Source of the DNA: Candidatus Peribacteraceae bacterium
GTDB taxonomy: Bacteria > Patescibacteriota > Gracilibacteria > Peribacterales > Peribacteraceae
DNA length: 64,000 bases
Direction: 5' to 3'
Assembly: GCA_028703445.1 (NCBI GenBank)
Contig: JAQVMW010000008.1
Location: 6,223 to 70,222, forward strand
This document shows, piece after piece, positions 39,586 to 60,357 of this stretch. Position 1 is the first letter of the stretch; the number at the start of each line of letters is the position of its first letter. Under the pieces are notes generated by a model. That model did no database searches and was not told the DNA's origin. It saw only the letters and a list, made by a program, of their open reading frames with translations. Position numbers and translations under genes: made by a program.

Positions 39586-40221
39586 ATGCATGAAGAAACG
39601 CACCGCCAGCAAAAACGGAGAAAGCTGCTCTACGCGATGAAGCTCCGCAGTAGAATGACGAAGGCAGAATCTTTGCTCTGGAACGCGCTACGCGGAAAGA
39701 AGTGTGACAGCATGAAGTTCCGTCGCCAGGTACCAATCAGTTGGTTTGTTGTTGATTTTCTGTGCGTCGAAAAACAGCTGATCATCGAACTCGATGGTCC
39801 GATTCATGAAAGGCAAAAATCGTATGATCATGAGCGGGAGAACGAGCTTCGAAGCCGGGGATACCGAATGATACGCTTCAAGAACGATCAAGTGCTTCAT
39901 GCATTGCCAACAGTGCTCAATGAAATACGCGATGCGGCTCTCCTCTCTCCCTACGGATGTCGGGATGGGGGGAGAGGGGCTGGGGGTGAGGAAAATTTCA
40001 ATAGACTTCCTTCAAATAGCACTCCTCACAATAGACGATCTCGGGTCGGTCGGGAGCGTACGTTGTCTGTATTTCTTTCTGGCATTTCATGCACGCTCTT
40101 TTCCAGAGCTTGCGGGGATTGCGGAGTGCAAGACGACGGTCGTAGCGTTCATCGGGGTGGAGACGCGGCACAGGAATCTTCTGTCGACGGTAGAAATCGA
40201 GCTCCTGCTTCAGAATCCTGA
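39586..40221 (+). CDS. DUF559 endonuclease-domain protein; the ORF runs on through a repeat and into the antisense of P2
   Basis: It carries ESLLWNALRGKK...FRRQVPISWFVVDFLCVEKQLIIELDGPIHE...RGYRMIRFKNDQVL. The recognisable domain ends near 39930. The rest is probably read-through. Confidence 0.6.
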   Translation: MHEETHRQQKRRKLLYAMKLRSRMTKAESLLWNALRGKKCDSMKFRRQVPISWFVVDFLCVEKQLIIELDGPIHERQKSYDHERENELRSRGYRMIRFKNDQVLHALPTVLNEIRDAALLSPYGCRDGGRGAGGEENFNRLPSNSTPHNRRSRVGRERTLSVFLSGISCTLFSRACGDCGVQDDGRSVHRGGDAAQESSVDGRNRAPASES

Positions 40222-41695
40222 AGGGACGGCCTGTTCTCTCGCAGAGAATCGCCCAATCCACGACGTCATCGTGAACATCCTCAATCCGATCAGGGAGCGT
40301 ATCTGCGGAAATGGTTTTGGAAACAGTCAGCTTCTTTTCCTCGATATCTCTCCAGTAGAAGCCCCGAGCTTGCGCTCCTTCCTTCGTGAGCGGCAAATAT
40401 TCGTACGCGAGTGATTCGTTGTACCCGAACGGTGAGAGAGACGGAGGAAAGTACAGGCCCCATTCCCCCGTCCCTTTCATGTGCTCGACGATGCGGGGCA
40501 CGAGCGATTCGTATTCCTCCTTCGTATACTGCACGTTGAAAACGCAGTACTGTTTGCGTTTCAGCCCCACGCACCCGAAGCAGTCCTTGCAGAAGTAACA
40601 GTACTCGCAGTAGAGAAGATCCCGGCAATGGAAGATGAAAAGACAGTACACGCAGTGATAGACCTCCAGCGTGCCGAGCGTGTCGTAGCAGAGCTCCGGT
40701 TTGATATACATGTTGGAACAGTCGTAGCAATCCTTCACTTGTACGCCGACGATGACGTTGCGGCAGTCCTGACTCTCATTCATGTCATAGCAGTCGATGC
40801 AATCTTTGGAATTCTCAATGAAATCACCCGTGCAGCGCTCGCTCGAAACGATATTTGCAGAGCGGTGAATCATCTTCGCAAAGAGCTGCATCCAGCGTTT
40901 CCGCATTGCCTCCGTGGCTGAAGCCGACCCCCGAAACTCCGCGATGCGGCGCTCGTACTCCTCTTTTGAAAGCGGTTCGTTGAGGAAGTAGTACTGCTTC
41001 TGCCGGAGATTGCTGCAGAGGCAACAGTTGCTGCAGCCGCTTAAATTCCAAGAAAAGGAACAGTCTCTGCAGTTCTGCGCAAAGGCGACGAAATCGAGTC
41101 CGTAGGACTTGAAGACGGAGAGGCACTCGTAGCAGAGCTCGCTATTGTAAAGGTACGAGCAATCCACGCTGTCCCGGGAACTCTGGAACAGTTTGCCGTA
41201 GTAGCATCGTTCGCAGTACTCGGATGAGTTGATGAGGTAGCAATCTTTGCAGTATCCCGTGCCGGCCGTATAGTCACAGTTCTCGTTGCCCATGAGCATG
41301 GATCCCAGGCGCGGGACCGCTTTGTGGAGCGCCGCAAACTGCGGGAAGAACGGTTGTGAGAAATCGTACGGACGACCGTGCTCGATGAAATCACGTCGGT
41401 CATCATTCCACTCGTCATGCGTGTACACGGCGTCTTTGGATCCCCAAAGGGGCTTCTCGTCATAGATGGAAATCATCTCTTTGCCGGTGAGCGTTGCCGT
41501 CCTGCGGTAGAAGTGCCATTCGTTCCTGTGGCATGTGCGAATTTTCAGCCGGCAGTCGGGGCAGTAGACGGGAAGCGGCAGATGGATCTTCGTCGCACCG
41601 AACGTGAATGTCATCTTGCGAAGAAACTCCTCCTCATCGGGATGGACATCGAAGGACTGCTTGCACCAAGGATTGCGGCAGGGAAGCTGCACCAT
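39998..41695 (-). CDS. Cys-rich family paralog P2
   Basis: It is 565 aa. The N-terminus is MVQLPCRNPWCKQSFDV. The C-terminus is ACMKCQKEIQTTYAPDRPEIVYCEECYLKEVY. Confidence 0.9.
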   Translation of the reverse strand: MVQLPCRNPWCKQSFDVHPDEEEFLRKMTFTFGATKIHLPLPVYCPDCRLKIRTCHRNEWHFYRRTATLTGKEMISIYDEKPLWGSKDAVYTHDEWNDDRRDFIEHGRPYDFSQPFFPQFAALHKAVPRLGSMLMGNENCDYTAGTGYCKDCYLINSSEYCERCYYGKLFQSSRDSVDCSYLYNSELCYECLSVFKSYGLDFVAFAQNCRDCSFSWNLSGCSNCCLCSNLRQKQYYFLNEPLSKEEYERRIAEFRGSASATEAMRKRWMQLFAKMIHRSANIVSSERCTGDFIENSKDCIDCYDMNESQDCRNVIVGVQVKDCYDCSNMYIKPELCYDTLGTLEVYHCVYCLFIFHCRDLLYCEYCYFCKDCFGCVGLKRKQYCVFNVQYTKEEYESLVPRIVEHMKGTGEWGLYFPPSLSPFGYNESLAYEYLPLTKEGAQARGFYWRDIEEKKLTVSKTISADTLPDRIEDVHDDVVDWAILCERTGRPFRILKQELDFYRRQKIPVPRLHPDERYDRRLALRNPRKLWKRACMKCQKEIQTTYAPDRPEIVYCEECYLKEVY

Positions 41696-41701
41696 TTTAT
41701 C

Positions 41702-41729
41702 GTAGCGGAAGATCGCGATCTTCCGCTAC
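41702..41729. repeat. 28-bp perfect palindrome gtagcggaagaTCGCGAtcttccgctac between P3 and P2
   Basis: It is identical to the copy at 49612-49639. Confidence 0.85.
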
Positions 41730-41739
41730 AGGACATGAC

Positions 41740-43389
41740 TCAATAGACCTCTTTCAAATAACACTCCTCGCAATAGATGATCTCGGGTCGGTCGGGAGCG
41801 TACGTTGTTTGCATTTCTTTACCGCACTTCATGCATTGCCGCTTCCAGAGACGGCGAGGATTGCGGCGCTGGATCCGCTCTAAGTGGCGCTCATCGAAAC
41901 ATAGGCGAGGCAGTGGCAGACAATGCTGACGATAGAGAGTAAGCTCCTGTGGAATGATCTTGTAGGGCTTACCCGTGCGCTCGCAGGTGAGGATCTTCTC
42001 CGTAATATCATCAGGCACATCTTTGATATCCAGGGGGAGTGAGAGGCGCGGTCCCTGGTAGGCGGATGTCTGGCTCTCCGAGTCCTCACGCCACTTCCAA
42101 CCACGCTTGGCCGCATCATTTTCCGTGAGCGGGAAGTACTCCTGCGCCACGGTCTCGTTGTAACCGAAGGGACTCAATTCCGGCGACAGCGGCTGGCCCC
42201 ACTCCCCCGTTTTCTTCATGTGCTCGACAATCTTCGCTTTCAGGCGCACGTACTCCTGTTCGGAGTACTGCTTGTTGAAGATGCAGAACCGCTGCTTTTT
42301 GAGTCCCGAACAGGCGAAGCAGTCCTCGCAGTATTGGCAGTGATCCAGGTACTGGGAATTCTTGGAATAGAAACTCACGAACGTGAACTGCGTGTTGTAC
42401 TGATTGATCGTAGAGATGGTTCCGTACGTCAGTTCACAGCGATCCACGACCACGTGCCCGTCATAGCAATCTTTCGACTTGAAGCTGAAGATCAGATAGC
42501 CGCAATCCTCCAGATCCGCGCTGTCGTAGCACTCCACACAATTCCTGCAGTGCACGATGTGGTCGCCCGTCACGTTCTCGTTGCCGTTGCCGTCGATGTA
42601 CTGGTGAATCTGCTGCTGCCCGGCCTTCCTGAGGAAGACGTCGCGGGCCGCCGAGAGCGTGCGAAAGTTGCCCGTGTTGAGCTCGCTGAGCTTCTTTGCA
42701 TACTCCTCCCTGGAATGCTGTTCGTTGAAGATGCAGTACTGCTTGTTCCGGAGACCGAAGCAGCCGAAACAGCTGTGACAACCCTTGCAGTCACTGAGGA
42801 AGAAACTGTCACGACAATTGTGCGACTTCTCGGAATGGGCGAGGTTGTAGGATTCCGAGCAATCCACACACTCGATGCAGAGCTCGCACTTAAAGCAGTT
42901 CAGGCACTCGATACAACTTAAGCAACTGTCGATGCCATAGGAGTACAGGCAGTCCTCATCGTGGTCGGAGACGAAGATCATATGGCAGTTCTTGTCCTGC
43001 TGCGCGCCGTTCGTGTAGTCGCTATTCACGTTGTTGGATGTGAAGACGGAAATCTTCGGCGTGGCCTTGATCAGGGCATCGAACTGCGGAAAAAACGGCT
43101 GACTGAAATCGAAGTCACGTCCGTGCTGCATCGCATCCCATTTGTCGGTGTACCACTCGTGCTGATCGTAAACGGTGTACGGACTGTCCGGCGCATAGAC
43201 GGAAATGATCTGCTTGCCCGTAAGGTCACACTTGCGATGGTAGAGTCGGCGCTCGTTGCGCCAGGCAAAGCGCCCTTGCCGTCGGCACGTGGGACAGAGT
43301 GTCGGGTCAGGCAGTGAAACCTTTGTGAGGAAAGCATGTTCCTGCGGCAGGACAGCGAAGGACGATCGGCAATGGGAGCAGGTGGGCAT
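41740..43389 (-). CDS. Cys-rich family paralog P3
   Basis: It is 549 aa. The N-terminus is MPTCSHCRSSFAVLPQEHAFL...CPTCRRQGRF. The C-terminus is QCMKCGKEMQTTYAPDRPEIIYCEECYLKEVY. Confidence 0.9.
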   Translation of the reverse strand: MPTCSHCRSSFAVLPQEHAFLTKVSLPDPTLCPTCRRQGRFAWRNERRLYHRKCDLTGKQIISVYAPDSPYTVYDQHEWYTDKWDAMQHGRDFDFSQPFFPQFDALIKATPKISVFTSNNVNSDYTNGAQQDKNCHMIFVSDHDEDCLYSYGIDSCLSCIECLNCFKCELCIECVDCSESYNLAHSEKSHNCRDSFFLSDCKGCHSCFGCFGLRNKQYCIFNEQHSREEYAKKLSELNTGNFRTLSAARDVFLRKAGQQQIHQYIDGNGNENVTGDHIVHCRNCVECYDSADLEDCGYLIFSFKSKDCYDGHVVVDRCELTYGTISTINQYNTQFTFVSFYSKNSQYLDHCQYCEDCFACSGLKKQRFCIFNKQYSEQEYVRLKAKIVEHMKKTGEWGQPLSPELSPFGYNETVAQEYFPLTENDAAKRGWKWREDSESQTSAYQGPRLSLPLDIKDVPDDITEKILTCERTGKPYKIIPQELTLYRQHCLPLPRLCFDERHLERIQRRNPRRLWKRQCMKCGKEMQTTYAPDRPEIIYCEECYLKEVY

Positions 43390-44006: not shown

Positions 44007-44768
44007 ATGCAAGCATCCGATCTTCTGGACTTTGGCCTCACAAAAGATGAGGCGTGTGTGTACCTCGCGCTCTTGGAACTGGGCGGCTCATATGTGAGCG
44101 CAATTGCCAAGAAGTCCGGCATTCACCGCGTTGTCTGTTATAAAATTCTGGATGACTTGGTAGGGAAAGGACTGGTCAGCAGCTTCCTCAAGAACAAGGT
44201 GAAGCACTTCGCAGTGGAGAGTCCGCAAATCCTGGTACGCCGCCAACAGGAGAAACTCGATAAAGCCAAAAAGATCCTCCCTGAACTCCTATCCATCACT
44301 AATGCACTCGCCTACAAACCGAAGATCCAGTATTACGAAGGGCTGGAGGGTATGAAGAACATCTTTGAAGAGACACTCACCGCCCAGAGCGAGCTCCTCG
44401 GTTACACGAATCTGGAAGACATCCCCAAAGTCATTCCGGAGGAATTTTTGCGTGACTATGCCAAGCGCAAGATCGCGAAAGGCCTCAAAACACGCATGCT
44501 TTCGCCTCACACGCCACGGGCACTCAAGTACCTGGAGAAGTATTATCCGAGGGGATTTGATCCGAATCTGGTCGAAATCCTCTTCGTGAACCCACGTGAA
44601 TTCCACTTTGAGTACGAAATCACGATCTACGGCGAGAAAGTGGCGATCCTCTCCCTCAATTCGGAGGAACGCATGGGGCTGATCATCGAGAGTCCGATCT
44701 ACGCGCGCACGCAGCGTGCGGTCTTTCAGCTGGCGTGGCTCGGAGCGACGAGCTTCGTGGCAAAGTAA
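44007..44768 (+). CDS. TrmB-family winged-helix transcriptional regulator
   Basis: It carries DLLDFGLTKDEACVYLALLELGGSYVSAIAKKSGIHRVVCYKILDDLVGKGLVS. It is a paralog of 60950-61705, and both end AWLGAT(S/A)FVAK. Confidence 0.8.
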   Translation: MQASDLLDFGLTKDEACVYLALLELGGSYVSAIAKKSGIHRVVCYKILDDLVGKGLVSSFLKNKVKHFAVESPQILVRRQQEKLDKAKKILPELLSITNALAYKPKIQYYEGLEGMKNIFEETLTAQSELLGYTNLEDIPKVIPEEFLRDYAKRKIAKGLKTRMLSPHTPRALKYLEKYYPRGFDPNLVEILFVNPREFHFEYEITIYGEKVAILSLNSEERMGLIIESPIYARTQRAVFQLAWLGATSFVAK

Positions 44769-44774
44769 CACACA

Positions 44775-46457
44775 TCAATAGACCTCTTTCAAATAGCACT
44801 CCTCACAATAGACAATCTCGGGTCTATCTGAAGAGTATGTCGTCTCGATCGGCTTCCGGCACTTCATGCAATTGCGGCTCCAGAGACGACGGGGATTGCG
44901 GAGCGCCATCCTCCTGCTATGCCGCTCATCGGGATGGAAGTGTGGGACGGGCAGGTGATTGGAACGGTAGAACTCCAATTCCCTCTTTACCACTCGAAAC
45001 GGCCGACTGGTTGCAGGACAAATGATCGCCCAGTTGAGGATGTCATCCGGAATAGCATCAATCGACGAAGGAAGTTGAGAGGCAGGGATCGTCTTGCTGA
45101 CCGCAAGCTTCTCTTCCTTCTCTTCTCTCCACGGGAATCCCCGCTTTTTGGCCTCAGCGTGAGTGAGTGGGAAATAGATTTGCGCCGTGGTCTCGTTGTA
45201 CGCAAACGGCGCGATACCGGCCGGGAAAAACTCCCCCCACTCACCGTGTTTTTGCATCAGTGCAATCACCTTCGGCACGAGCTTCTCATACTCCTCTTTC
45301 GTGCACTGCTTATTGAGGACACAGTACTTTCCCGGTTTCATGCACACGCACCCGCACATGTCCGAGCCCGTCTGGATGATGTCACAGTAGAGCAGGTTCT
45401 TACTGCCCCAGGACCCGTGCGTGAAGACCGTATTGTACGAGCCATAGCCGAGGCTCAGAGAGTCATATCCGAGCTCCGCATCCGTGGTGTGGCACACATC
45501 CATAAGGTCTTTGACCTGGAAACCCGTGAAGATGTACGCGCAGTCCTCACCGTACGACAGGTCGAAGCAATGTCGAAGGTTTTTGGAGTCCTTGAGGTAA
45601 TCGCCGGTCACGTTGTCGCAGTTCACCACTTCGCGCGCACGGTGGATGCTCTTCTCTTTGAAATCGGCAAACTCCTGCAGCACCTCTGCGAGTCCTCCGT
45701 TCGCCACGCGATCCATCATCTCCTTCTTCAACCGCAGATACTCCCCTTTCGCGTACTCCCGATTCCAGATGTAGTTGCGCTTGTTTCTGAGATTCGTCGA
45801 CATCAAGCACTCGGTGCAGCCTTTGCAGTCGAAAAGGAAGGCGCCCGAGGAACAATTGGTGCAGTTCTGAGAAAAGGAGAGCGAGTGACACTTGTCGACG
45901 TCGGTCACCTCGAAGCAGTAGTGCGATTCTGTACAGTCCACCGTGTCCACGCACCCAGTGGATTTGATGACCTGGTACCCGTACAGACAATCTTCGTTGA
46001 ACTCCGCGGCGAAGATGAGGTAGCAATTCTTGTTACTGCCGGAGTGATTGATGAATTCCGAGTTCTCGTTGTTGATGACATTGAGTGCGAGACGCGGAAC
46101 CGCATTCTGGAGCTCTTTCACCTGAGCGAGGAAGGGACGATTGAAATCCACCGGCCGACCGTACGTGAGCGGATCGTTTTTGTCGGACCACCAGCATTCC
46201 GTGCAGTAGACGGGAAAGGCCGAGCCAGCGGGATACATCGAGATGATGGACTTCTTGCACAGATCGCACGTCCGCCGATAGAGGGCGCGCTCATTACGCC
46301 AGAAGAGTCGGCGCTGCTGGCGACAGTCGGGGCAGAGCAGAGGCGACGGGATCGGGAATTTCTTCCCGGCGAAGACGGGGGAAAGTTTGTCTAAAAGCGC
46401 GAGATCAGCAGGGGTGACCTCGAACGCCGATGAACACTGGCGGCAGGAATAATTCAT
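44775..46457 (-). CDS. Cys-rich family paralog P4
   Basis: It is 560 aa. The N-terminus is MNYSCRQCSSAFEVTPADLALL...CPDCRQQRRL. The C-terminus is NCMKCRKPIETTYSSDRPEIVYCEECYLKEVY. Confidence 0.9.
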   Translation of the reverse strand: MNYSCRQCSSAFEVTPADLALLDKLSPVFAGKKFPIPSPLLCPDCRQQRRLFWRNERALYRRTCDLCKKSIISMYPAGSAFPVYCTECWWSDKNDPLTYGRPVDFNRPFLAQVKELQNAVPRLALNVINNENSEFINHSGSNKNCYLIFAAEFNEDCLYGYQVIKSTGCVDTVDCTESHYCFEVTDVDKCHSLSFSQNCTNCSSGAFLFDCKGCTECLMSTNLRNKRNYIWNREYAKGEYLRLKKEMMDRVANGGLAEVLQEFADFKEKSIHRAREVVNCDNVTGDYLKDSKNLRHCFDLSYGEDCAYIFTGFQVKDLMDVCHTTDAELGYDSLSLGYGSYNTVFTHGSWGSKNLLYCDIIQTGSDMCGCVCMKPGKYCVLNKQCTKEEYEKLVPKVIALMQKHGEWGEFFPAGIAPFAYNETTAQIYFPLTHAEAKKRGFPWREEKEEKLAVSKTIPASQLPSSIDAIPDDILNWAIICPATSRPFRVVKRELEFYRSNHLPVPHFHPDERHSRRMALRNPRRLWSRNCMKCRKPIETTYSSDRPEIVYCEECYLKEVY

Positions 46458-47066: not shown

Positions 47067-47864
47067 CTACGCTCCGACACCGTTACTCCACATACGCTCG
47101 AACTGATCGCGATAGAGCGCCACAAGCTCCGGATGCCGGATAATGATCACGCGCGGATTTCCCCTGTCGCAGATGAAGTGGCGCACGTGATCTTTGGTGT
47201 ACCCCAGGTAATTCCTGGCAACGGGGATCGTGTCCACGAGACGCGTGGTACGCAGCTCCTTACTATCCCGCTTGGCAAATGTCTCGGATTCGGGTGAGTG
47301 CGTATTGAAGACGCGGCAGAACATGTTTCGACTGAAGCGTTTATGACGAAACGCCAGCTCCTCAGATGCCTCGTCGGACATGCCGGCAACATCCCAATAA
47401 TTCTGCATAGACCCCATGCACAGAAACTCGTCATCACAGAGATCGGGAATCTTGAGGTACTCCTCGCGAAACGCATCCAGGCCTTCCCTGAGTTCGACCG
47501 GCTCATGCTCCGTTTTCCCATCCGCATCGCGGGTGAGATCCGCGAACGGGAGCAAATGATCCAGATCCTGCAGGGCCAGCTGTACCTTGCGCAGCGACCG
47601 CTGCTCCTGATCGAGTTTGTGAATGAGTGCCTTGAGCGTGAGCGGCGCATACACGCTCTGCTTCTGGTTGATGCTGAACGCCTGCACCAGCCCGCGCTCG
47701 GTGAGGCGCTTGATGGTGCGGTAGGCGGTCATGATATTGAGCCCCGATTCCGCGATGAGCTCCGTCATCGAGGCACGCCGGAGCTTAAGCAAATGGAGAT
47801 ACAGGGTGACCTCCTCGTCCTTGAGACCAGCCAGACTAAGAAGATGTTGGAGCTTGCGACGCAC
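47067..47864 (-). CDS. TrmB-like transcriptional regulator (divergent member)
   Basis: It has the N-terminal wHTH LKDEEVTLYLHLLKLRRASMTELIAESGLNIMTAYRTIKRLTERGLV. It starts at GTG. Confidence 0.7.
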   Translation of the reverse strand: MRRKLQHLLSLAGLKDEEVTLYLHLLKLRRASMTELIAESGLNIMTAYRTIKRLTERGLVQAFSINQKQSVYAPLTLKALIHKLDQEQRSLRKVQLALQDLDHLLPFADLTRDADGKTEHEPVELREGLDAFREEYLKIPDLCDDEFLCMGSMQNYWDVAGMSDEASEELAFRHKRFSRNMFCRVFNTHSPESETFAKRDSKELRTTRLVDTIPVARNYLGYTKDHVRHFICDRGNPRVIIIRHPELVALYRDQFERMWSNGVGA

Positions 47865-47913: not shown

Positions 47914-49605
47914 TCAGTACACCTCTTTCAGGTAGCAGGCTTCGCAATAAATCATCTCAGGCCGATCGGGGGCATAAGTAGTCTCGATCCCCTCACCGCA
48001 CTTCGCGCACGTGCGCTTCCAGAGATGGCGGGGATTGCGCAGGAGGGCGCGACGCTGGAAGCGTTCATCGGGATGCAAATACGGTATGGGCAAACCGTTT
48101 GCCCGATAGAATTCCAATTCCTGTTTCACAATACGAAAAGGGCGCTTGGTTCTTGCGCACTCGATCGCCCAGTCGAGGATGTCGTCCGGGGTGTCATCAA
48201 TGGTAGTCGGCAATTGTGCGGCAGGAATAACTTTCGATACTTTGGGGCTGTCCTCTTTCTGATCCCGCCATCGCCATTTCCGCTCCCATGCCGCCTCTCT
48301 CTTGAGAGGGTAATAGCGATGCGCCGCCGTTTCGTTGTAGCCGAAGGGTGAGAGGCTGATTGGGAAGAAGTGCCCCCATTCGCCCGCCTTGCACATCGCA
48401 TCAATCACCTTGGGCACCAGTGTTTCGTACTCCTCCTTCGTATACTGTTTGTTGAAGATGCAGTATTTTTTGTTCCGGAGCCCGAAGCATCCGAAGCAAT
48501 CCGTGCAGTACCAACAGTACTGACTATAGAGCACGGATTTGCACTCGTAGCACTTGGAGCAGACGCAGAGGGAGTAGCCCAGATTACAGCCGTGGGATTC
48601 GTACTGCAGCTCCCCCCGGAGGGGCTCGAGCGTATCCAGACAATTCTTCACCATGCCTGTGTCGTAACAGTACGCGCAGTCTTCGGACTCGAAGACGTAG
48701 AAACAATTATGGCAGTTTTTGCAGTGAGCCAGGTGATCGCCCGTTACATTCTCGCAATGTTCGAGTACGAGAGCTTTATGCAGGGCTCGCTCGGCAACAT
48801 CTTTCTGGAAACGCGCGCACTGTTCCTGTGCGGCTTTCCATGTCACCGGATGCAGGACCTTGAGTTTTGCTTCATACGCATCCTTCGTCAGCTGCTCATT
48901 GTTGATGCAGTACCGTTTATGACGAAGGTTCCAACATCCGAAACAATCGGAGCATCCCTGGCAGTCGTAGCAGAAGGAACAGTTGGTGCAATTGATACAT
49001 TCGTGGAGATAGGTAGAGAACGCGCACTGCTTGCAATCCACGCACTCGTAGCAACGCTCGCACTTCTGCACGGCCAGGCAATCGGCGCAGTTGCGGCTGT
49101 CCGGCGTGAAATCGCTGGTATAGAAGCAATCCTCGCAGTACCCGGTATTGATGCACATGTAGCAGTTCTTGTTGTAGGCGGAGTGATTGGTGTAGGCGGA
49201 GTTCTCGCTGCTCATATTCACGATGCACGGCCGCGGGGCAACGAGACTCAGATCATGGAATTGTTCGAAGAAGGGACGTTTGAAATCGTAGGCCCGGCCG
49301 GTAGCAAGTTGATCCCAGTCATCGCTCCACCAGACAACCTGATCATAGACAATGCACTCCTTGTCATCCGAATAGACGGAAACCATCTCCTTCCCGGTTT
49401 TATCACACTTCCGCCGGTAGAAGCACCTCTCGTTTCGGTAACTTAAGCGCCGCTGCTGCCTGCAATCGGGACAGTGTGTGGGTGGTGGAAGCGCATACTT
49501 TGCACCGGCAAGCATCGGCGACACCCGATCGAGGAGATCGAGATCGGCATCGGTGACCTCGAATGGCTGCTTGCACCAAGGATTGCGGCAGGTCTTCTGC
49601 ACCAC
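47914..49605 (-). CDS. Cys-rich family paralog P5
   Basis: It is 563 aa. The N-terminus is MVQKTCRNPWCKQPFEVTDADLDLL. The C-terminus is TCAKCGEGIETTYAPDRPEMIYCEACYLKEVY. It starts at GTG. Confidence 0.9.
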   Translation of the reverse strand: MVQKTCRNPWCKQPFEVTDADLDLLDRVSPMLAGAKYALPPPTHCPDCRQQRRLSYRNERCFYRRKCDKTGKEMVSVYSDDKECIVYDQVVWWSDDWDQLATGRAYDFKRPFFEQFHDLSLVAPRPCIVNMSSENSAYTNHSAYNKNCYMCINTGYCEDCFYTSDFTPDSRNCADCLAVQKCERCYECVDCKQCAFSTYLHECINCTNCSFCYDCQGCSDCFGCWNLRHKRYCINNEQLTKDAYEAKLKVLHPVTWKAAQEQCARFQKDVAERALHKALVLEHCENVTGDHLAHCKNCHNCFYVFESEDCAYCYDTGMVKNCLDTLEPLRGELQYESHGCNLGYSLCVCSKCYECKSVLYSQYCWYCTDCFGCFGLRNKKYCIFNKQYTKEEYETLVPKVIDAMCKAGEWGHFFPISLSPFGYNETAAHRYYPLKREAAWERKWRWRDQKEDSPKVSKVIPAAQLPTTIDDTPDDILDWAIECARTKRPFRIVKQELEFYRANGLPIPYLHPDERFQRRALLRNPRHLWKRTCAKCGEGIETTYAPDRPEMIYCEACYLKEVY

Positions 49606-51308: not shown

Positions 51309-52985
51309 TCAGTATACCTCTTTGAGGTAGCACTCCTCGCACAACACGCGCTCTTTTCTCTCGGGCGCAAAGGTGGACTCCACTTCCTTCCCACACTTGG
51401 AACATGGCCGTTTCCAGAGCCGGCGCGGCGGGCGGAGTGCCGTGCGACGATCCTGACGTTCCTCCGGGTGCAGGTGCGGAATGGGCAGATTATGCGTGCG
51501 ATAGAACGCAAGTTCCTGCTTCACGATGCGGAAGGGACGCCCCGATTCCTCCGAAGTCACCGCCCAATTGAGCACATCGTCGGGAACCTCGGCGATCGTC
51601 TGCGGCAATTTGGATGCGGGAATGACCTTCTTCACGTCGGGCTTCTCGTCGTGCTCATCGCGCCACGGATAGCCACGCTTGATGGCTTCTTCTTTGGTGA
51701 GCGGAAAGTATTCCTGGGCGATTGATTCGTTGTAGGCGAAGGAGCACATGCTCTTCGGAAAAAACTCCCCGTATGCGCCGGTCTTGCGCATGTGCGCGAT
51801 CAGTTTCCTCCGCAATCGTTCGTATTCCTCCTTTGAATACTGTTTGTTCAAAATGCAGTACTGCTTCTTCTTGAGTCCCACACACCCGAAACAGTCTTTG
51901 CAGCCCGTGCAGCTGTCCAAGTACGCGCAATCGCTCAAATTCGTCGTGCACATGGTGGAAAATTTGAGGTTGAAGATGTTGTTGCCGCACGCGCCGCACT
52001 GGTACACCCGTTCCGCCTTGTCACCCCAGAAGGTGTAATCCATGGAGGATTTCACTCCCATCGAAACGCGCTGGCAGTAGCGGCAATCCTCCAGATCCTT
52101 GGCATCCATGCAGGAGAAAGCGTTCCGCGTGTTCGAGATGTGATCGCCCGTGGAGTGCTCGTTGTGCTCCCCCTGCACGTAGCGCTGCGGCTGTAATTGG
52201 AAAAACTGTGCAGCCTTTTCGCGAACCTGCGCGATCCCGGCAGACGAATCAAGCTTCAGAGCCTTCTTCTTCGCCTCGTACTCCTCTTTCGTCAGCTGCT
52301 CATTGAAGATCATATTCCTCTTCTGTCGCTGATGCATGCAACCAATGCACTCACTGCAGCCGATGCAATTCTTGAGGAAAAAACTGTTCGAACAGTTCTG
52401 GCAATCCTGCGAGAAGAAGAGACTGTGACAGTCGATGCAGTCCAGACATTCGTAGATCAGTTCGCTTTGATGGCAATTGAAGCAGTCGACTGCGTTTGTG
52501 CAGTGATAGACGCGGTTACTGTAGAGACAGTCCTCGTCGTAATCGGCTTCCGCAATCAGGTAACAGTTCTTTGAAAATCCGGCATTGTTCACGTAGTCGC
52601 TGTTCACCATCGTCCCCTGGATCACAAAGCGCGCCTGATGGGGAACTTTGTTCCGCAACTCCGCAAACTGTTCGAAGAAGGAGCGGGAAAAGTCGATCTC
52701 CTGCCCGTACGCGAGGGCATCCCACTCGTCACCCCACCATGCTTCGGGGCTGAAGACGGGGAATGGATTACCGTCGTGGAACTGCGAGAGGATGCGCTCG
52801 CCTGTGAGATCGCACTTCCTCCAATAGAGTTTGCGCGAATTGCGCTCGAGCAAGCGCCGCCTGAGCCGGCACTCCGGGCAGGATTTGGGTGCCGGGACTT
52901 CGAAATCGTCCAAAAACTTCTGATCGTCCGGAGTGATCTCGAAAGGTGTGCCACAGTCGATGCAGGTGTGCTCCATGGGATGCAT
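51309..52985 (-). CDS. Cys-rich family paralog P7
   Basis: It is 558 aa. The N-terminus is EHTCIDCGTPFEITPDDQKFL...CPECRLRRRL. The C-terminus is PCSKCGKEVESTFAPERKERVLCEECYLKEVY. Only 6 nt separate its stop from the P6 start. Confidence 0.9.
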   Translation of the reverse strand: MHPMEHTCIDCGTPFEITPDDQKFLDDFEVPAPKSCPECRLRRRLLERNSRKLYWRKCDLTGERILSQFHDGNPFPVFSPEAWWGDEWDALAYGQEIDFSRSFFEQFAELRNKVPHQARFVIQGTMVNSDYVNNAGFSKNCYLIAEADYDEDCLYSNRVYHCTNAVDCFNCHQSELIYECLDCIDCHSLFFSQDCQNCSNSFFLKNCIGCSECIGCMHQRQKRNMIFNEQLTKEEYEAKKKALKLDSSAGIAQVREKAAQFFQLQPQRYVQGEHNEHSTGDHISNTRNAFSCMDAKDLEDCRYCQRVSMGVKSSMDYTFWGDKAERVYQCGACGNNIFNLKFSTMCTTNLSDCAYLDSCTGCKDCFGCVGLKKKQYCILNKQYSKEEYERLRRKLIAHMRKTGAYGEFFPKSMCSFAYNESIAQEYFPLTKEEAIKRGYPWRDEHDEKPDVKKVIPASKLPQTIAEVPDDVLNWAVTSEESGRPFRIVKQELAFYRTHNLPIPHLHPEERQDRRTALRPPRRLWKRPCSKCGKEVESTFAPERKERVLCEECYLKEVY

Positions 52986-53030
52986 TAAGTATACCTATGT
53001 TTCTGACGGTGTTTGGGAGAATGAAGAAGT

Positions 53031-53078
53031 AAGAATTATGAATAATGCACGATAACAATACCTTTATTCATAATTCTT
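53031..53078. terminator. AT-rich hairpin between P8 and P7
   Basis: It has a 15-bp perfect stem aagaattatgaataa / ttattcataattctt and an 18-nt loop. Its function is unknown (terminator or regulatory). Confidence 0.4.
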
Positions 53079-53093
53079 CATTCTTACTTCTCG

Positions 53094-54924: not shown

Positions 54925-56598
54925 TTAATACACCTCCTTCAAGTAACACTCCTCGCAATAGACGATTTCGGGTCTGTTGGGTGCGTACGTCGTTTCGATG
55001 GGCTTTTTGCACTTGGCACAGGTGCGCTTGAAAAGCTGACGGGGATTGCGAAGTGCGAAACGCTCTCTCTGTCTCTGCACGAAACACTTACGCGGCAAAG
55101 GTAATTTCATGTCGCGGTAGAATTGGAGCTCCTGGGGAATGATCTTGAAGAGTTTTCCCGTTACTGCGCAGCGGAGAATTCTTTCGCAAATGGAATCGTC
55201 GGCATCCCGAATATCATCGGGAACCGGCACCTGCGGTCCGAGGTAGTTCTCCTGTCTCTCTTCGACCTCCTCCTCCTCCTCCTTCCACCGCCAGCCGTGA
55301 GCAATGGCCTGCTCCTTCGTGAGAGGAAAATACTCCTGCGCAATGGTTTCGTTGTACGCAAAAGGACTCATCTCTCTCGGAAAGAACTGCCCCCACTCTT
55401 TATGCTTCTTCATGTGAGCAATGAGTTTCGAAAGGAGTGTTTCGTACTCCTCCTTCGTGTACTGCTTGTTCAAGATGCAGTACCGCTTCTGCTTCAGGCT
55501 GACGCAGCCGAAGCAATCCTGGCAACCATGGCAGGTATCGCAGTAAAAGAGGTTTGCATTGTCATTCTGACAGGCATGGCAGGCAATGAGCCGATGATTC
55601 GGTCCGATGGTGAGACAGTTGTAGCAGAGTTCGGCGCGCGCACCCGCGTTGATCCCGCAGAAATTGCAGTCGAGGGAATCGGAGAAACTGTCGAGTGTGG
55701 CGCTATAGAGCGTGTCTTCACAGTTCTTCAGATCGTACCCGTCGTAGATATTCCTGCAGTTGTACAGATAGTCTCCGGTCACATTCTCGCAGTTGAAGCC
55801 GTGATAGTTCTTCACAATCTCCTTTCCGATCAGGGTATCCACCTTCTTCTTCGCGAGGGCAATCGTGCGGATGTTCCCGGTATTCAATTCCGCGATCTTC
55901 TTTCGATAGTCTTCCTTGCTGTGCGGAACATTGAAAATATGAAACTCCTTGTTCTTGAGTCCCACGCATCCGAAACAATCATGGCATCCCACGCAGTGCA
56001 CGAGGAACATCGACGAAGAGCAATTGTCACAGGTGCGTGAGAAGCTGAGCGAATGGCATTGGACGCAATCGATGCATTCGTAACAATATTCCGATCGATA
56101 GGTGTAGAGGCAATCGTAGCAATCTTTCGATTGCCACACGATATGACCGTACATGCAGTCTTCGTTCCCGACGTTCCCGAAGACAAGGTAACAATTGCGG
56201 CTGCCGTTCGACATGTTGCAGTAATCGCAGTTCTCGCAATTAACGTTCATGAACGCGATGCGTGGAACCGTGCGATGGAGAACGGCGACTTGCTCGAAGA
56301 ACGAACGCGAAAAGTCCGGGGCGATGCCGTAGTCGAGACCGTCCCACTTGTCGCTCCACCATTCCTGCAACCCATACACGGGAAAAGCGGTCCCTTCGTC
56401 GTAGACCGACAGTATTTTCTTGCCCGTCAGATCGCAGGTGCGATGGTAGAGATGGAAGAAGTTGCGGAACATGAGACGTCGCTGGCGGCGGCAGGCAGGG
56501 CACTCCACGGGATCCGGTACATCCAATGTTTTGTAGAGCTCCTGCTCCTTTGGGAGAAGTTCGAAGACAGCCGAACAATGACGACACGTTCTACCCAT
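54925..56598 (-). CDS. Cys-rich family paralog P9
   Basis: The ORF extends to 56640, but ATG 56598 (MGRTCRHCSAVFEL) aligns with the family N-terminus. The C-terminus is TCAKCKKPIETTYAPNRPEIVYCEECYLKEVY. Confidence 0.9.
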   Translation of the reverse strand: MGRTCRHCSAVFELLPKEQELYKTLDVPDPVECPACRRQRRLMFRNFFHLYHRTCDLTGKKILSVYDEGTAFPVYGLQEWWSDKWDGLDYGIAPDFSRSFFEQVAVLHRTVPRIAFMNVNCENCDYCNMSNGSRNCYLVFGNVGNEDCMYGHIVWQSKDCYDCLYTYRSEYCYECIDCVQCHSLSFSRTCDNCSSSMFLVHCVGCHDCFGCVGLKNKEFHIFNVPHSKEDYRKKIAELNTGNIRTIALAKKKVDTLIGKEIVKNYHGFNCENVTGDYLYNCRNIYDGYDLKNCEDTLYSATLDSFSDSLDCNFCGINAGARAELCYNCLTIGPNHRLIACHACQNDNANLFYCDTCHGCQDCFGCVSLKQKRYCILNKQYTKEEYETLLSKLIAHMKKHKEWGQFFPREMSPFAYNETIAQEYFPLTKEQAIAHGWRWKEEEEEVEERQENYLGPQVPVPDDIRDADDSICERILRCAVTGKLFKIIPQELQFYRDMKLPLPRKCFVQRQRERFALRNPRQLFKRTCAKCKKPIETTYAPNRPEIVYCEECYLKEVY

Positions 56599-56705
56599 GC
56601 ATGGAACGGAGAACATGGCTCCATGAAAACAAGAAACCACTTGTCCATCCAGAATCTTTTTGGAGCGTTGCTACGGAACAAAAATCGCTGGTACGATGAC
56701 CGCCC

Positions 56706-56993: not shown

Positions 56994-58684
56994 TAGACGG
57001 AGGCGAGATAGCACTCCTCGCAATACACGATCTCCGGCCGCTCCGGTGCGTAGCTCGTAGCAATTGGCTGTTGGCATTTGGCGCATGTCCGCTTCCAGAG
57101 CTTGCGGGGGTTTCGGAGCGCCATGCGCTCCTTGTGACGCTGGTCGGGGCATTTGCGCGGAAGAGGCAGGCCCACCTCGCGGTAGAACTTGAGTTCCTGC
57201 GGGATGATTTTGAAGGGACGGCCGGTCACGGAGCACTGCAGGATTTTCTGGCAGATGGAATCATCGATATCCGTGATCTTCTTCGTGAGATCGATCGGGG
57301 GACCCAAATACTTGTCGCGCGCCTGCTCCTCATCCCGCCACTGCCATCCCCTCTCTCTGACTTCGCTCTCTGTGAGCGGAAAGTACTCCTGCGCCACCGT
57401 TTCGTTATAACCGAAAGGACTCAATGGGCTCGGAAAGAATTCGCCCCACTCCTTGGTTTTGCGCATATGCTCAATGATCTTCGGCACCAACGCCTCGTAC
57501 TCCGCCTTCGTGTACTGCTTGTTGAGGATGTAGAACTCCGCATTCTTGAGCCCAATGCACCCGAAAAGGTATTTGGAGCCGAAGCAGCTGTCACAGTAGA
57601 GCGCGTCGGAGACTCGGTTACAGAAGCGCGAGAAGAGCAGGCACTGATCCTGGTACGCGCCGAGGTAATCGCAGCACAGCTCATTCTCCTCTGTATAGTT
57701 ATTGTCGTAGCAGTCTTTCAGGTCGACGACCTGCGCGCAGTAGCGGCAGTCCTGCGAGCGGTCGGCGTAGTACGCATCGCGGACGTTGCGGCACTGGTAC
57801 ACGTAGTTCCCGCTCACCTGTTCCGTCTGGGCGCTCTGCATGTAGCGGTGCGGGATCTTGAGGGAAAGATCGGCAAGCTGGGATCGCAGGAGCTCGTGCA
57901 CTTCGGGCTGCGACAGATCCAATTCTTTCCGTCTCTTCTTGAATTCCTCCTCCGTGTATTGCGTGTTGAGGATGCAGTAGCTCTTCTGCCGCAGTCCCGC
58001 GCAGCCGATGCAGTCGTGACAGCCCTGCAGGTCGTAGCAGTAGAGAAGATCTCGGCAGTTATGGCAGTCGCGGCAGTAGAAGCAGGAGTGCAGTTTGCGA
58101 CAATCCACGCATTCGTAGCACCGCTCGCACTCGCGCACGACGAGCGTGTCGACGCAATTCCTGGAGTAGTACGGGGAACCGTAGTAGCAGTCCTGCGAGT
58201 AGACGGACCCGAAGATCAGATAGCTGTCCTTCACATGCCCCACGTAGTTGCAGTAGTCGCTGTTCTCGGAATTCCAAACAGAGAGAGCCAACTGCGGCAC
58301 ATGATCCTGCAGGTCACGGTACTGTTCGAAGAACGGCCGGGAGAAATCGAAATTCAAAGCGAAGGTCCTTCCATCCCACTTGTCGCTCCACCATTCTTCG
58401 TATGCGTAGACGGGATTTTTGGCATCGACGGAGAAATTAGAAATAATCTGCTTGCCGCTAAGATCGCACTTGCGATGGTAGAGCGTACGTTCGTTGCGGA
58501 AGGAAAACCTCCGCTGCCGGCGACAATCCGGACAGAGGGTAGGGGGAGGAACCGATTCTTTCTTGCCCGCGAAGACAGGCGATACCTTCTCGTAGAACGC
58601 CAGGTCGTCTTTGGTCACCTCGAACGCCGATGAGCATTGGCGGCAGGTTTTCCCTGTAGTGAGCGTGGTCGAACTATGCATCAT
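56990..58684 (-). CDS. Cys-rich family paralog P10
   Basis: The ORF extends to 58777, but ATG 58684 (MMHSSTTLTTGKTCRQCSSAFEVTKDDLAFY) fits the family. It overlaps the P11 stop as ATGA. The C-terminus is TCAKCQQPIATSYAPERPEIVYCEECYLASVY. Confidence 0.9.
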   Translation of the reverse strand: MMHSSTTLTTGKTCRQCSSAFEVTKDDLAFYEKVSPVFAGKKESVPPPTLCPDCRRQRRFSFRNERTLYHRKCDLSGKQIISNFSVDAKNPVYAYEEWWSDKWDGRTFALNFDFSRPFFEQYRDLQDHVPQLALSVWNSENSDYCNYVGHVKDSYLIFGSVYSQDCYYGSPYYSRNCVDTLVVRECERCYECVDCRKLHSCFYCRDCHNCRDLLYCYDLQGCHDCIGCAGLRQKSYCILNTQYTEEEFKKRRKELDLSQPEVHELLRSQLADLSLKIPHRYMQSAQTEQVSGNYVYQCRNVRDAYYADRSQDCRYCAQVVDLKDCYDNNYTEENELCCDYLGAYQDQCLLFSRFCNRVSDALYCDSCFGSKYLFGCIGLKNAEFYILNKQYTKAEYEALVPKIIEHMRKTKEWGEFFPSPLSPFGYNETVAQEYFPLTESEVRERGWQWRDEEQARDKYLGPPIDLTKKITDIDDSICQKILQCSVTGRPFKIIPQELKFYREVGLPLPRKCPDQRHKERMALRNPRKLWKRTCAKCQQPIATSYAPERPEIVYCEECYLASVY

Positions 58685-60357
58685 ACGAGCGATTGCTGAT
58701 AACACTTTTCGCAATACACTTTCTCCGGACGAGCCGGTGCGTAGCTGGTTTGAATCGGAATGCCGCATACGCCACACGTGCGTTCGTAGAGGATGCGCTT
58801 ATTACGCATCTGGAGCTGCTTGCGGTACCGCGTGAAAAAACTGGTCCGAGGCAGCGGCACATGCAACTGTCTGTGGAATGTGAGCTCCTGTGGAATAATC
58901 TTGTACTGCCTGCCGCTCTCGCCGCACGTGAGTATTTTCTTGCAGATATCGTCGGTGACATCGTCGATGTTGTCTGGAATTTCGACTTTTGGGCCAAGGT
59001 ATTGATCCTTCTTCTCCACGGCATCGAACCACCGCCAGCCTCGTGCCAGAACCTCTTTTTTCGTAAGCGGGAAATAGTCCTGGGCCAGCGTCTCGTTGTA
59101 GGCAAAACAGGATGTCTCGGTCGGAAAGAATTCACCCCATTCGTTCGTCGATCGCATGTGTTGGATGATCTTCGGTACGAGTGTTTCGTACTCCTCTTTG
59201 GTATATTGCTTATTGAGAATGCAGTACTCCTTGCGTCGCAGGCCGACACAGGCGAAGCAGTGCTTCGAGTGGTGACACAATTGGCAGTAGATCATGTCGC
59301 TCATGCTCGCGAGCGTATGGTTGCAGAAGTAACAACTGTGGATCTCATATCCCGCGACCGAGCACTCGTAGAGCCTCTCCGCTTCGCCGCACTCGTGAAT
59401 GTCCATGCAGTTTTTCAGCGGCATGAATCCCTGAAAGACGTATCTGCAATCCCACAGATCTTCGCTGTCGAAGCAGTAATAGGCATTCTTACAGTTGACC
59501 AGATAATCGCCGACTACGTCTTCGTTCTGCACGCCGTGCATATACTTTTGCGGAAACTCCAGCTTGAGTGTGTCAAAGCGTTGTCGCGCGGACTCCACGG
59601 CTGAGTAATGGCCAAGCATGGCGCGAAACTTCTCAAATTCCTCTTTCGTCACTCGCTTGTTCTCCACGAAATACTCCTTATTTTTCAGGTTACTGCACAT
59701 CAGGCATTTTTTGCAGCCCGTGCAGTTTTTGAGGAACATTGATTCCGAGCAGTTGTCGCAATCCTGCAGATACGATGAGCCATAACATTTCACGCAGTCG
59801 ATGCATTCGTAGCAGAGTTCCGATTTCCGTGCGCGAAAGCATCCGACGCAATTCACGCACTGGTTACAGCTGTAGCTGTAGTAGCAGTCCCGGTTTTCAT
59901 CGGAGTCAAAGATCAGATAGCAGTCCTTGTTCTTCCCTGCATAGTTCGTGTAGTCGCAGTTTTCATCGAACTCGTAACCCGTCATCAGATTGGGTCGGGG
60001 TACAACATCGAAGAGCTCTTTCCACTGCGCGAAGAACGGCCGGGAGAAATCGAAATCCCGCTGGTATGCATGCGGATCCCACTTGTCGCTGTACCAGTCC
60101 TCCTGGGCATAAACTTTGTAAGGGGAAGAGGGATGGATGTTGGAAATGATCTGCGCTCCCGTGAGGTCGCACTTCCGCTCGTAGAGGTTGACATGGTTGA
60201 CATGCGTTTGCCTGCGCCGGAGCCTGCAGTCAGGACAGAGCGTGGGAGGAGGAATCGGGAGCTTCTGCCCTCCGATTACCGGACTCAAGGAATCGAGCAT
60301 CGCCAGATCATCCTTCGTCACCACGAATGCCGATGAGCAGTGCTTGCAGGCGGGCAT
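58681..60357 (-). CDS. Cys-rich family paralog P11
   Basis: The ORF extends to TTG 60429. ATG 60357 (MPACKHCSSAFVVTKDDLAML) aligns with the family. The C-terminus is TCGVCGIPIQTSYAPARPEKVYCEKCYQQSLV. Confidence 0.9.
   Translation of the reverse strand: MPACKHCSSAFVVTKDDLAMLDSLSPVIGGQKLPIPPPTLCPDCRLRRRQTHVNHVNLYERKCDLTGAQIISNIHPSSPYKVYAQEDWYSDKWDPHAYQRDFDFSRPFFAQWKELFDVVPRPNLMTGYEFDENCDYTNYAGKNKDCYLIFDSDENRDCYYSYSCNQCVNCVGCFRARKSELCYECIDCVKCYGSSYLQDCDNCSESMFLKNCTGCKKCLMCSNLKNKEYFVENKRVTKEEFEKFRAMLGHYSAVESARQRFDTLKLEFPQKYMHGVQNEDVVGDYLVNCKNAYYCFDSEDLWDCRYVFQGFMPLKNCMDIHECGEAERLYECSVAGYEIHSCYFCNHTLASMSDMIYCQLCHHSKHCFACVGLRRKEYCILNKQYTKEEYETLVPKIIQHMRSTNEWGEFFPTETSCFAYNETLAQDYFPLTKKEVLARGWRWFDAVEKKDQYLGPKVEIPDNIDDVTDDICKKILTCGESGRQYKIIPQELTFHRQLHVPLPRTSFFTRYRKQLQMRNKRILYERTCGVCGIPIQTSYAPARPEKVYCEKCYQQSLV

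Follow-up and report, generated by a model that had tools for sequence, protein, structure and literature searches.

A family of cysteine-rich proteins encoded in tandem arrays with TrmB-like regulators and, frequently, an orphan VirD4-like ATPase in Peribacteraceae and related bacteria

Why would a bacterium of a genome type of about 1–1.4 Mb (judged from the near-complete contigs of related genomes) spend about 18.5 kb on a single undescribed protein family? This question is raised by a stretch of 64,000 nucleotides (nt) from Candidatus Peribacteraceae bacterium (assembly GCA_028703445.1, contig JAQVMW010000008.1, positions 6,223 to 70,222), hereafter called the window, which carries ten Cys-rich paralogues of around 560 amino acids (aa) in one tandem array and an eleventh copy elsewhere. 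An earlier, sequence-only reading of this DNA had taken them for a diversified intracellular recognition or metal-binding system that arose by massive local amplification. We find instead that the expansion of the family is ancient and its members are under strong purifying selection, that the proteins are composed of putative zinc-binding end modules and predicted Cys-ladder beta-solenoids, and that the arrays are frequently followed by the gene of a soluble VirD4-like ATPase. Tentatively, we read the individual copies as clients or adaptors of this ATPase.

The array, its recurrent gene order, and the age of the family

All eleven open reading frames (ORFs), P1 to P11, proved to be full-length and intact as previously described, each with a single terminal stop. 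They are listed here together with orthologues from a sample of 77 related loci (flanks of up to ±10 kb), which we label with L-codes such as L003 or L030:

20837..22540, plus strand: P1, 567 aa; dispersed copy inserted in a mevalonate-pathway cluster; orthologue 98% identical in L003
39998..41695, minus strand: P2, 565 aa; last family gene of the array
41740..43389, minus strand: P3, 549 aa; orthologue in L034 90% identical
44775..46457, minus strand: P4, 560 aa; retains all four Cys of the putative second zinc site of the N-terminal module
47914..49605, minus strand: P5, 563 aa with 52 Cys; the copy used for structure prediction
49650..51302, minus strand: P6, 550 aa; divergent subfamily without the putative first N-terminal zinc site
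51309..52985, minus strand: P7, 558 aa
53094..54794, minus strand: P8, 566 aa; like P4, retains all four Cys of the putative second N-module zinc site
54925..56598, minus strand: P9, 557 aa
56990..58684, minus strand: P10, 564 aa; start overlaps the P11 stop by 4 nt
58681..60357, minus strand: P11, 558 aa; first gene of the main array; orthologues 89–92% identical in L030 and L053

Together, these genes make up 18,504 nt or 28.9% of the window, in agreement with the 18.5 kb and 29% given before, and the operon-like spacings reported for the array (the overlap of P11 and P10, 6 nt between P7 and P6, and 44 nt each between P3 and P2 and between P6 and P5) were all reproduced; longer alternative GTG or TTG starts exist upstream of P9, P10, and P11. 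The proteins are 549–567 aa long and contain 34–52 Cys per copy (the earlier count of 36 for P1 was correct), which corresponds to 6–9% of residues, mostly in CxxC motifs. No 19-residue window reaches a Kyte–Doolittle value of 1.6 in any of the copies, in keeping with the claim that they have neither a signal peptide nor a transmembrane segment. They align over their full length at 40–48% pairwise identity (26–31% for P6 against the others) with 42 invariant columns, a similarity that, judged from these alignments, is far above chance. An assembly artefact or collapsed repeat was considered and rejected: mis-assembly is very unlikely because the copies are only about 60–80% identical in their DNA and because comparable arrays are present in dozens of independent assemblies, some of them with contigs of more than 1 Mb.

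Read along the minus strand, the gene order of the window is M23 peptidase, T3 (divergent), P11, P10, P9, P8, P7, P6, P5, T2, P4, T1 (divergent), P3, P2, ATPase, and DUF4015 hydrolase. The ATPase gene and the three regulator genes that accompany the family are the following:

37179..39422, minus strand: soluble hexameric-type ATPase, 747 aa, DUF8128 plus VirD4/TraD/VirB4/HerA-type ATPase; co-directional with and downstream of the array, just outside the span that had been described before
44007..44768, plus strand: T1, TrmB family (PF01978); 46% identical to T3; divergent from the P3–P2 sub-operon
47067..47864, minus strand: T2, TrmB family (PF01978); inside the array and co-directional; homologues in 8 loci
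60938..61705, plus strand: T3, TrmB family (PF01978); divergent from the array

The three TrmB-type regulators that had been noticed within or beside the array score above the PF01978 cut-off of 25.6 bits (49.6, 37.7, and 36.0 bits), and a window TrmB protein matches the TrmB structure 3qph in the PDB (E = 1e-4); a sugar-binding C-domain was not detected in the TrmB-family proteins of the window. Of the small interleaved ORFs that had been pointed out as well, two (43420–43881 and 46474–46941) are present and have neither family matches nor homologues among the 77 related loci, but a third one (56591–56986, 131 aa) looks spurious with its Arg/Ser-rich translation. We rejected these ORFs as conserved partners of the family since they share no mutual similarity, match no known family, and are missing from close relatives.

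The ATPase matches the Pfam models T4SS-DNA_transf (PF02534, 34.2 bits with a cut-off of 20.1), TrwB_AAD_bind (PF10412, 23.1 bits with a cut-off of 20.5), and DUF87. Its N-terminal 280 aa form the alpha/beta domain DUF8128, and an all-alpha insertion occupies residues 408–532. In Foldseek searches, its AlphaFold2 (AF2) model, which has a predicted local distance difference test score (pLDDT) of 80, retrieves TrwK/VirB4 (E = 2e-13), TrwB (TMt 0.60–0.65), and HerA. With type IV coupling proteins (T4CPs, such as TrwB/VirD4) and VirB4 (such as TrwK/VirB4), this protein thus has in common a P-loop nucleotide-binding domain and an all-alpha domain like that of TrwB, but it lacks the canonical membrane anchor of T4CPs (no hydrophobic window that could form an N-terminal transmembrane anchor was found), and no virB4, relaxase, or other genes of a type IV secretion system (T4SS) are adjacent. 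Among the window genes scanned, there are no VirB4 or relaxase genes at all, and T4SS-type genes are limited to one PrgI-family ORF 35 kb away. This PrgI-family (VirB3-like) gene (2554–3204, plus strand) adjoins clpB (22–2394) far from any virB4, in line with reports that T4SS genes are dispersed in Gracilibacteria. The ATPase is 69–93% identical across its best 120 homologues, whose annotations name T4SS DNA-binding or coupling proteins, and it belongs with the orphan T4CP homologues of Patescibacteria discussed in PMC12102498. A 2025 survey of Patescibacteria T4SSs reported 5,713 VirD4-like T4CPs, only 148 of them encoded close to virB4, and it does not mention the Cys-rich family.

When family genes (F), TrmB homologues (T), and ATPase homologues (A) were mapped on the 77 related loci, the same order recurred: a divergent T, F repeated n times and sometimes with a T inside, and then a co-directional A with a median gap of 58 nt. 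Homologues of T1 or T3 are present in 34–36 of these loci, where they usually precede the first family gene and are transcribed away from it. A divergent T precedes the first visible family gene in 16 of 32 arrays but only 1 of 20 scored singletons, and A directly follows the last F in about half (at least 9) of the 20 arrays with a visible 3' end but none of 21 singletons. The arrangement, which we call T-Fn-A, is therefore conserved, and the link to A is frequent but not obligatory. In the close relative STB_147 (L030 and L034), the array shares both its beginning with the window (M23 peptidase followed by T3) and its end (T2-F-T1-F-A-DUF4015).

Tandem arrays of this kind had been thought to be unusual for such proteins, but they are the rule among the 77 related loci, and L017, L022, and L037 each contain 10–11 copies within about 21 kb, which are lower bounds since the flanks end there. 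A profile built from the eleven copies retrieved at least 7,640 protein clusters at 90% identity, all of them unnamed or annotated as hypothetical. The best 120 of these matches are all full-length (most of them 548–580 aa) with E-values of about 1e-230 to 1e-256 and come, where the source organism is named, from Peregrinibacteria, Peribacteria, or the Patescibacteria group. An exhaustive HMMER scan of 1.84 billion representatives at 50% identity found 5,610 clusters at E ≤ 1e-3, of which 2,452 reach E ≤ 1e-30, and at least 588 loci encoding the family were found in a scan of one genome per GTDB species, with record titles that name Peribacteria/Peribacteraceae, Peregrinibacteria, Gracilibacteria, Altimarinota, and Abawacabacteria. 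We rejected a phage or plasmid origin given that IMG/VR and PLSDB contain no relatives and GenBank phages yielded only composition-biased (xxC)n proteins. Rare members with additional domains exist among the database homologues (P0195 and P0231; one has an N-terminal GNAT domain, PF00583, the other a C-terminal extension of 250 aa without Pfam match), but such fusions are too rare to serve as a clue to function and possibly result from gene calling.

The idea of a massive local amplification was not borne out. Because the paralogues of the window are uniformly only about 45% identical to each other and the orthologues of each in other genomes are 60–98% identical, the expansion is ancient, with each copy maintained individually. 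Even the divergent P6 has orthologues at 62–89% identity with a ratio of nonsynonymous to synonymous substitution rates (dN/dS) of 0.046, and an orthologue of the dispersed P1 (80% identical) lies inside an array in L029. These identities led us to reject recent local amplification or concerted evolution, with a single local exception: the P3|P2 (41600–41800) and P6|P5 (49510–49710) junctions on the minus strand share a 200-nt stretch, comprising the 44-nt spacer and the CRNPWCKQ N-termini, at 84% identity. This value is much above that of the rest of those genes and suggests that the junction underwent local gene conversion or was duplicated as a segment. Across orthologue pairs, dN/dS is about 0.05–0.10 (dS is saturated in the more distant pairs), and the central region does not exceed the ends with values of 0.02–0.09. 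These ratios show strong purifying selection on a family that is not engaged in an arms race, contrary to the proposed diversifying recognition system. The distinction between conserved ends and a variable centre holds only moderately, with a mean pairwise identity of 46–54% in the end and middle modules versus 23–39% in the central domains; it supports the view that the centre is the paralogue-specific part of the protein.

Domain layout and predicted fold

No Pfam or NCBIfam model reaches its threshold on the family proteins. Their internal organization became apparent from profile–profile comparisons of family sub-alignments (residue numbers here and below are those of P5): with hhalign, residues 5–91 match residues 482–557 (A versus A', probability 99.4, E = 2e-21) and residues 125–240 match residues 276–389 (B versus B', probability 99.8, E = 6e-29). 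Because of these two internal duplications, we assign the proteins a layout of A-B-(helices)-B'-(helix plus acidic "mid" segment)-A'. The acidic and highly conserved mid segment (GEWGEFFP..SPFxYNETxAQEYFPLT) joins B' to A', and the C-terminal 170 aa, which include a basic stretch, are the most conserved part of the protein. The termini are fixed in that 91% of members stop exactly 6 residues past the last CxxC and 72% end in [VI]Y. For P5, AF2 yielded a confident model from 128 sequences, with a pLDDT of 91.2 and a predicted template modelling score of 0.91, yet Foldseek searches of the PDB and BFVD with this model found no match at E < 0.01, and the fold is apparently novel as far as the model can tell.

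The end modules A and A' are about 100 aa each and contain two CxxC...CxxC sites with a basic, Arg-rich stretch between them (motifs CRxQRRLxxRNER and RxALRNPRKLWKR). The first part of each has a net charge of +5 and an isoelectric point (pI) of 9.2–9.6 in contrast to the other segments, which are mostly acidic, as is the whole protein with a median net charge of –7. We analyzed the Cys statistics of these modules in 504 family members. Two sites are nearly universal, namely C6/C11/C45/C48 (with a co-occurrence of C11 and C48 of phi 0.83) and C533/C536/C554/C557, an exact CxxC-x17-CxxC located 6 residues from the C-terminus in which each Cys is 97–99% conserved. The other two are optional: at the CxxC-x17-CxxC site C67/C70/C88/C91, C70, C88, and C91 co-occur at phi 0.99–1.0 and in 22% of members, and at C483/C486/C511/C514, C486 and C514 co-occur at phi 0.96 and in 17–18%. 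Because these Cys have been gained or lost in an all-or-none fashion across the family, the sets indicate putative zinc sites. Each end module descends from a unit with two putative zinc sites of which the N-terminal module usually retains the first and the C-terminal module the second. The duplicated sites have decayed in a complementary manner, with site 2 of the N-terminal module intact in 22% and site 1 of the C-terminal module in 17% of members, and the co-occurrence of the two optional sites is weak (phi about 0.22).

The last 35 residues provide the only partial resemblance of the end modules to known domains. At the same position in 8 of 10 paralogues scanned, they match PF23477 (zf_Tbcl_2) with 18.6–24.5 bits at a cut-off of 27, and they match TIGR04272 with 14.6–18.1 bits at a cut-off of 36. 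These models describe a "probable treble clef" finger with the same CxxC-x17-CxxC spacing, but all scores of the family stay below the curated cut-offs, the finger makes up only about 6% of the protein, and the domains themselves have no assigned function. Sequence searches of the PDB match only LIM- or GATA-type fingers. Among LIM domains, those of CRP align with the family profile through their second finger (E = 7e-5), and the PDB LIM matches span 30 residues only. Likewise, only the second-finger half of the LIM model PF00412 aligns (positions 28–57 of 58; 14.2–16.2 bits with a cut-off of 22.9). A LIM domain needs two tandem fingers (C2HC plus C4), an arrangement that differs from that of the family.

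In the central domains, Cys residues follow a strict period-3 lattice, with an autocorrelation of 0.5–0.76 at every multiple of 3 in B. They are individually replaced by Ser, Ala, Val, Leu, or Ile, number 9–22 in B and 5–19 in B', are occupied in 12–95% of members, and co-occur at phi ≤ 0.38, slightly positively at i+12 and negatively at i+6. We regard this pattern as the signature of predicted Cys-ladder beta-solenoids in which Cys would serve as small, inward-facing core residues. Because these Cys are freely replaced, variable in number, and only weakly co-occurring, they behave as core residues and not as ligands of Fe-S or Zn quartets, and we rejected obligate metal quartets in the centre on the same grounds. 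Consistently, Pfam and NCBIfam scans gave no Fer4 or radical-SAM matches, and no invariant Cys ligand set for an Fe-S cluster is present. The metal-binding part of the earlier proposal therefore fared differently along the protein: zinc at the conserved ends is favored by the all-or-none co-occurrence of Cys, but Fe-S clusters or other metals at the central CxxC lattice are not, given the individual replacement of Cys there.

Two known classes of narrow beta-helices come closest to these central domains. The left-handed beta-helix of LpxA/LpxD, GlmU, and gamma-carbonic anhydrase is the only recurring class among the weak Foldseek matches of the P5 model, but at E ≥ 0.014, a probability ≤ 0.25, and template modelling scores ≤ 0.21; moreover, there is no Hexapep match in Pfam, and the period-3 Cys lattice is not the [LIV]-G-x4 repeat, so the family is not a member of this hexapeptide-repeat class. 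The Tenebrio-type antifreeze beta-helix with its 12-residue Cys coils (IPR016133) likewise combines a narrow solenoid with a regular Cys lattice, but it is secreted and disulfide-paired, and a disulfide core is unlikely for cytoplasmic proteins without signal peptide. The sole outside sequence link of the central domains is to phage (xxC)n proteins and is dominated by composition with large bias scores; in tblastn, residues 113–221 of P5 reach a composition-biased E = 3e-4 with one such protein from a Vibrio phage, whose annotation includes the insect-antifreeze motif IPR016133. No antifreeze protein structure is among the best 50 Foldseek matches listed, and the resemblance to the Tenebrio antifreeze helix (TmAFP) itself is a presumed one.

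The family and the T-Fn-A locus thus are of an undescribed type: the protein of about 560 aa as a whole fits no known family tested (the earlier failure to place it in any characterized Pfam or enzyme class stands after searches of Pfam, NCBIfam, PDB sequences, and Foldseek), and full-text literature searches found no description of the family or the locus. Known are the parts that resemble other proteins, i.e., the CxxC-x17-CxxC finger and the similarity to Cys-containing narrow beta-helices, as well as the neighbors in the TrmB and VirD4/VirB4/HerA families. We also considered whether the family might be the "cysteine-rich 14-gene cluster" reported in the Peribacter riflensis paper and rejected this since Table S4 of that paper contains only large proteins of 580–3,860 aa, for most of which the paper gives signal peptides or a predicted extracellular localization.

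Possible roles of the array

If the proteins are built as predicted, the conserved zinc-held ends together with the mid segment would form a docking unit that binds one common partner, for which the co-operonic ATPase would be the most economical candidate and nucleic acid the alternative. Because the solenoid surfaces differ between paralogues and are conserved between orthologues, a separate ligand or target would be expected for each copy, so that the array would represent a fixed repertoire of about ten specialized clients, adaptors, or substrates of one ATPase that the TrmB-like regulators would switch on and off. We give this reading of the copies as paralogue-specific clients or adaptors of the ATPase a probability of about 0.35. 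A more specific version of it, in which zinc-capped solenoids are clients of orphan VirD4-like ATPases and a DUF8128–VirD4 hexamer grips the C-terminal module to deliver the protein to a host cell or load it onto nucleic acid, seems unlikely to us in this form; if true, it would establish a new ATPase-plus-client system specific to Gracilibacteria/Peregrinibacteria and built on a fold without a solved relative.

Several observations weigh against a client or adaptor role. The link between family and ATPase rests on gene adjacency and could be inherited synteny within one class. For 11 of the 20 arrays that could be followed to their 3' end, scoring placed no A immediately downstream (at least one of these is a scoring miss), at least one genome (L080) has A without adjacent family genes, and dispersed single copies such as P1 have neither regulator nor ATPase nearby. 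On the side of the protein, zinc binding at the ends is deduced from sequence, the solenoid geometry is based on DSSP, periodicity, and weak Foldseek matches, and no catalytic motif, known interaction domain, or structural neighbor was found in Pfam, NCBIfam, Foldseek, and PADLOC searches.

It is doubtful, though the idea deserves attention, that the copies work autonomously as nucleic-acid-binding zinc-finger proteins (chaperones of RNA or DNA, or regulators or protectors of particular RNAs or DNA sites) whose basic ends act as a clamp and whose solenoids are spacers or specificity surfaces, with an ATPase that is coincidental or a translocase on the same substrate. The two basic modules with their CxxC fingers and Arg-rich motifs would suit such a role, as would the GATA/LIM-like spacing of the C-terminal finger and the neighboring ATPase of the FtsK/HerA/VirD4 clade, whose members are known as DNA translocases. 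However, the acidic charge of the protein as a whole does not fit, no DNA- or RNA-binding family was matched beyond the generic finger, and the need for about ten paralogues with individually conserved centres is left unexplained. That the copies are secreted effectors, recognized via their C-terminal module by the coupling-protein-like ATPase and translocated into a host cell, we consider quite improbable. Tandem paralogues without Sec signal or transmembrane segment directly upstream of a VirD4-like gene, a best-conserved C-terminal region with basic stretch and fixed C-terminus, and a PrgI/VirB3-family gene within the same window are what one might expect of effectors, and the Bartonella Bep/BID and Xanthomonas X-Tfe/XVIPCD effector arrays likewise combine tandem paralogues and a conserved C-terminal module with a VirD4-like neighbor. 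This likeness is a functional analogy only, since there is no sequence relation (nor any BID or XVIPCD similarity in the Pfam scan) and since our family is conserved at both ends, evolves under strong purifying selection, and has no demonstrable secretion channel nearby. The ATPase has no membrane anchor and is not encoded near virB4, and strong purifying selection with 1:1 orthology would be unusual for host-directed effectors. Tightly folded proteins with several zinc sites are also poor T4SS substrates. Cultured members of related Patescibacteria classes do live attached to host cells and grow on them, but VirB6 has not been detected in Gracilibacteria and T4CP is non-essential for epibiotic growth in Southlakia (PMC12102498). 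Were the copies effectors after all, the locus would become a variant of T4CP–client systems.

Two further explanations appear far less probable. A store or buffer of metal or redox equivalents, comparable to metallothionein or an Fe-S carrier, would account for the high Cys content, its CxxC pattern, and the likely terminal zinc sites, and Peribacteria proteomes have been reported to be unusually Cys-rich (PMC4736985). Yet the central Cys are interchangeable, variable in number, and do not covary as sets of ligands, ferredoxin-type motifs or Fer4 matches are missing, AF2 confidently models an ordered fold of several domains without metal, and centres that are specific to paralogues but conserved in orthologues favor specific interactions over bulk binding, all of which makes storage a very improbable role. 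Least probable of all, in our view, is a role in phage defense or conflict, in the sense of the diversified recognition proposed earlier, with the copies as varied sensors inside the cell and the HerA/VirD4-like ATPase as motor or effector. HerA-type ATPases partner with effectors in known defense systems, SIR2-HerA and DUF4297-HerA are among the structural matches of the ATPase, the latter weakly matches mad8 of PADLOC (E = 1.6e-12), and the locus contains many paralogues. Nevertheless, P5 has no PADLOC matches at all and the ATPase only the weak mad8 and HerA ones, the dN/dS values and the stable orthologues and chromosomal context speak against an immune function, the high identity of the ATPase across its best 120 matches is housekeeping-like, and there is neither a nuclease or toxin domain nor any relative in viral contigs or plasmids.

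Because the family is large with thousands of members, has no domain model or structural neighbor, and is under strong purifying selection, it probably does something important and lineage-specific. The conserved link of the family to a TrmB-like regulator and an orphan ATPase offers a testable handle on the role of T4CP homologues that are not linked to a T4SS, and it bears on the cytoplasmic machinery behind the host-dependent lifestyle of Peregrinibacteria/Gracilibacteria. The A-B-B'-A' protein also is a good target for structure determination, since it unites a predicted Cys-ladder solenoid in the cytoplasm with duplicated putative zinc sites that have decayed in complementary fashion.

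The upstream region and other genes of the window

The region upstream of the first array gene (60358–60546, minus strand) is 69–89% identical in the DNA of related genomes (L030, L053, L052, L074, L007, and L050) and contains two elements of possible regulatory relevance:

60491..60508, minus strand: inverted repeat TGTAGAA-N4-TTCTACA, a block mostly invariant across 7 genomes that overlaps a -10-like box
60362..60395, minus strand: leader hairpin plus T-run; 5 nt separate its end from the P11 ATG

The inverted repeat is a candidate operator for the TrmB-like regulator, and a promoter-like site is located at 60523–60496, although a generic promoter and terminator scan performed no better than on shuffled sequence. 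The leader hairpin retains its 6-bp stem in 6 of 7 genomes; the changes in it are limited to G-U, and compensatory pairs are absent. The region may therefore combine an operator with an attenuator or leader. A second conserved block within it reads CTGTTGGACAAT.ATGACTATAC. Rfam and tRNA scans of the window gave nothing within the array. Directly upstream of T3, the ORF at 60547–60930 (plus strand), which the earlier reading had not listed, belongs to PF05635 (E = 6e-24), the four-helix-bundle proteins of 23S rRNA intervening sequences.

Other repeats and spacers of the array were noted as well. A perfect palindrome of 28 nt, GTAGCGGAAGATCGCGATCTTCCGCTAC, is found at 41702–41729 and 49612–49639, a few nt upstream of the P2 and P5 starts. 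A third copy (18897–18924), both outer arms of which carry compensatory changes (GCAGCGG...CCGCTGC), is located between the genes for mevalonate-diphosphate decarboxylase and HMG-CoA reductase. None would be expected by chance, the palindrome was not found in the 77 related loci, and it looks like a genome-specific hairpin or element resembling repetitive extragenic palindromes (REP-like). The 108-nt gap between P8 and P7 contains an AT-rich inverted repeat (53017–53092) with 29-nt arms of 86% complementarity and an 18-nt loop. The gap between P10 and P9 is unusually long (56599–56989, 390 nt), and the corresponding spacers of L030, L015, and L062 match parts of it at about 80% identity; it may hold a conserved non-coding element.

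Outside the array, the dispersed copy P1 is inserted between the HMG-CoA reductase gene and an HMG-CoA-synthase-like gene of the mevalonate-pathway cluster (15183–24856), which further encodes undecaprenyl-PP synthase, a GHMP kinase, diphosphomevalonate decarboxylase, and thiolase. On the minus strand at 9583–12087, the window encodes a protein of 834 aa with an S-layer homology (SLH) domain and a beta-propeller, adjoined by a protein of 766 aa without Pfam match (12103–14403, minus strand); both are probably cell-surface proteins like those described in the Peribacter genome paper.

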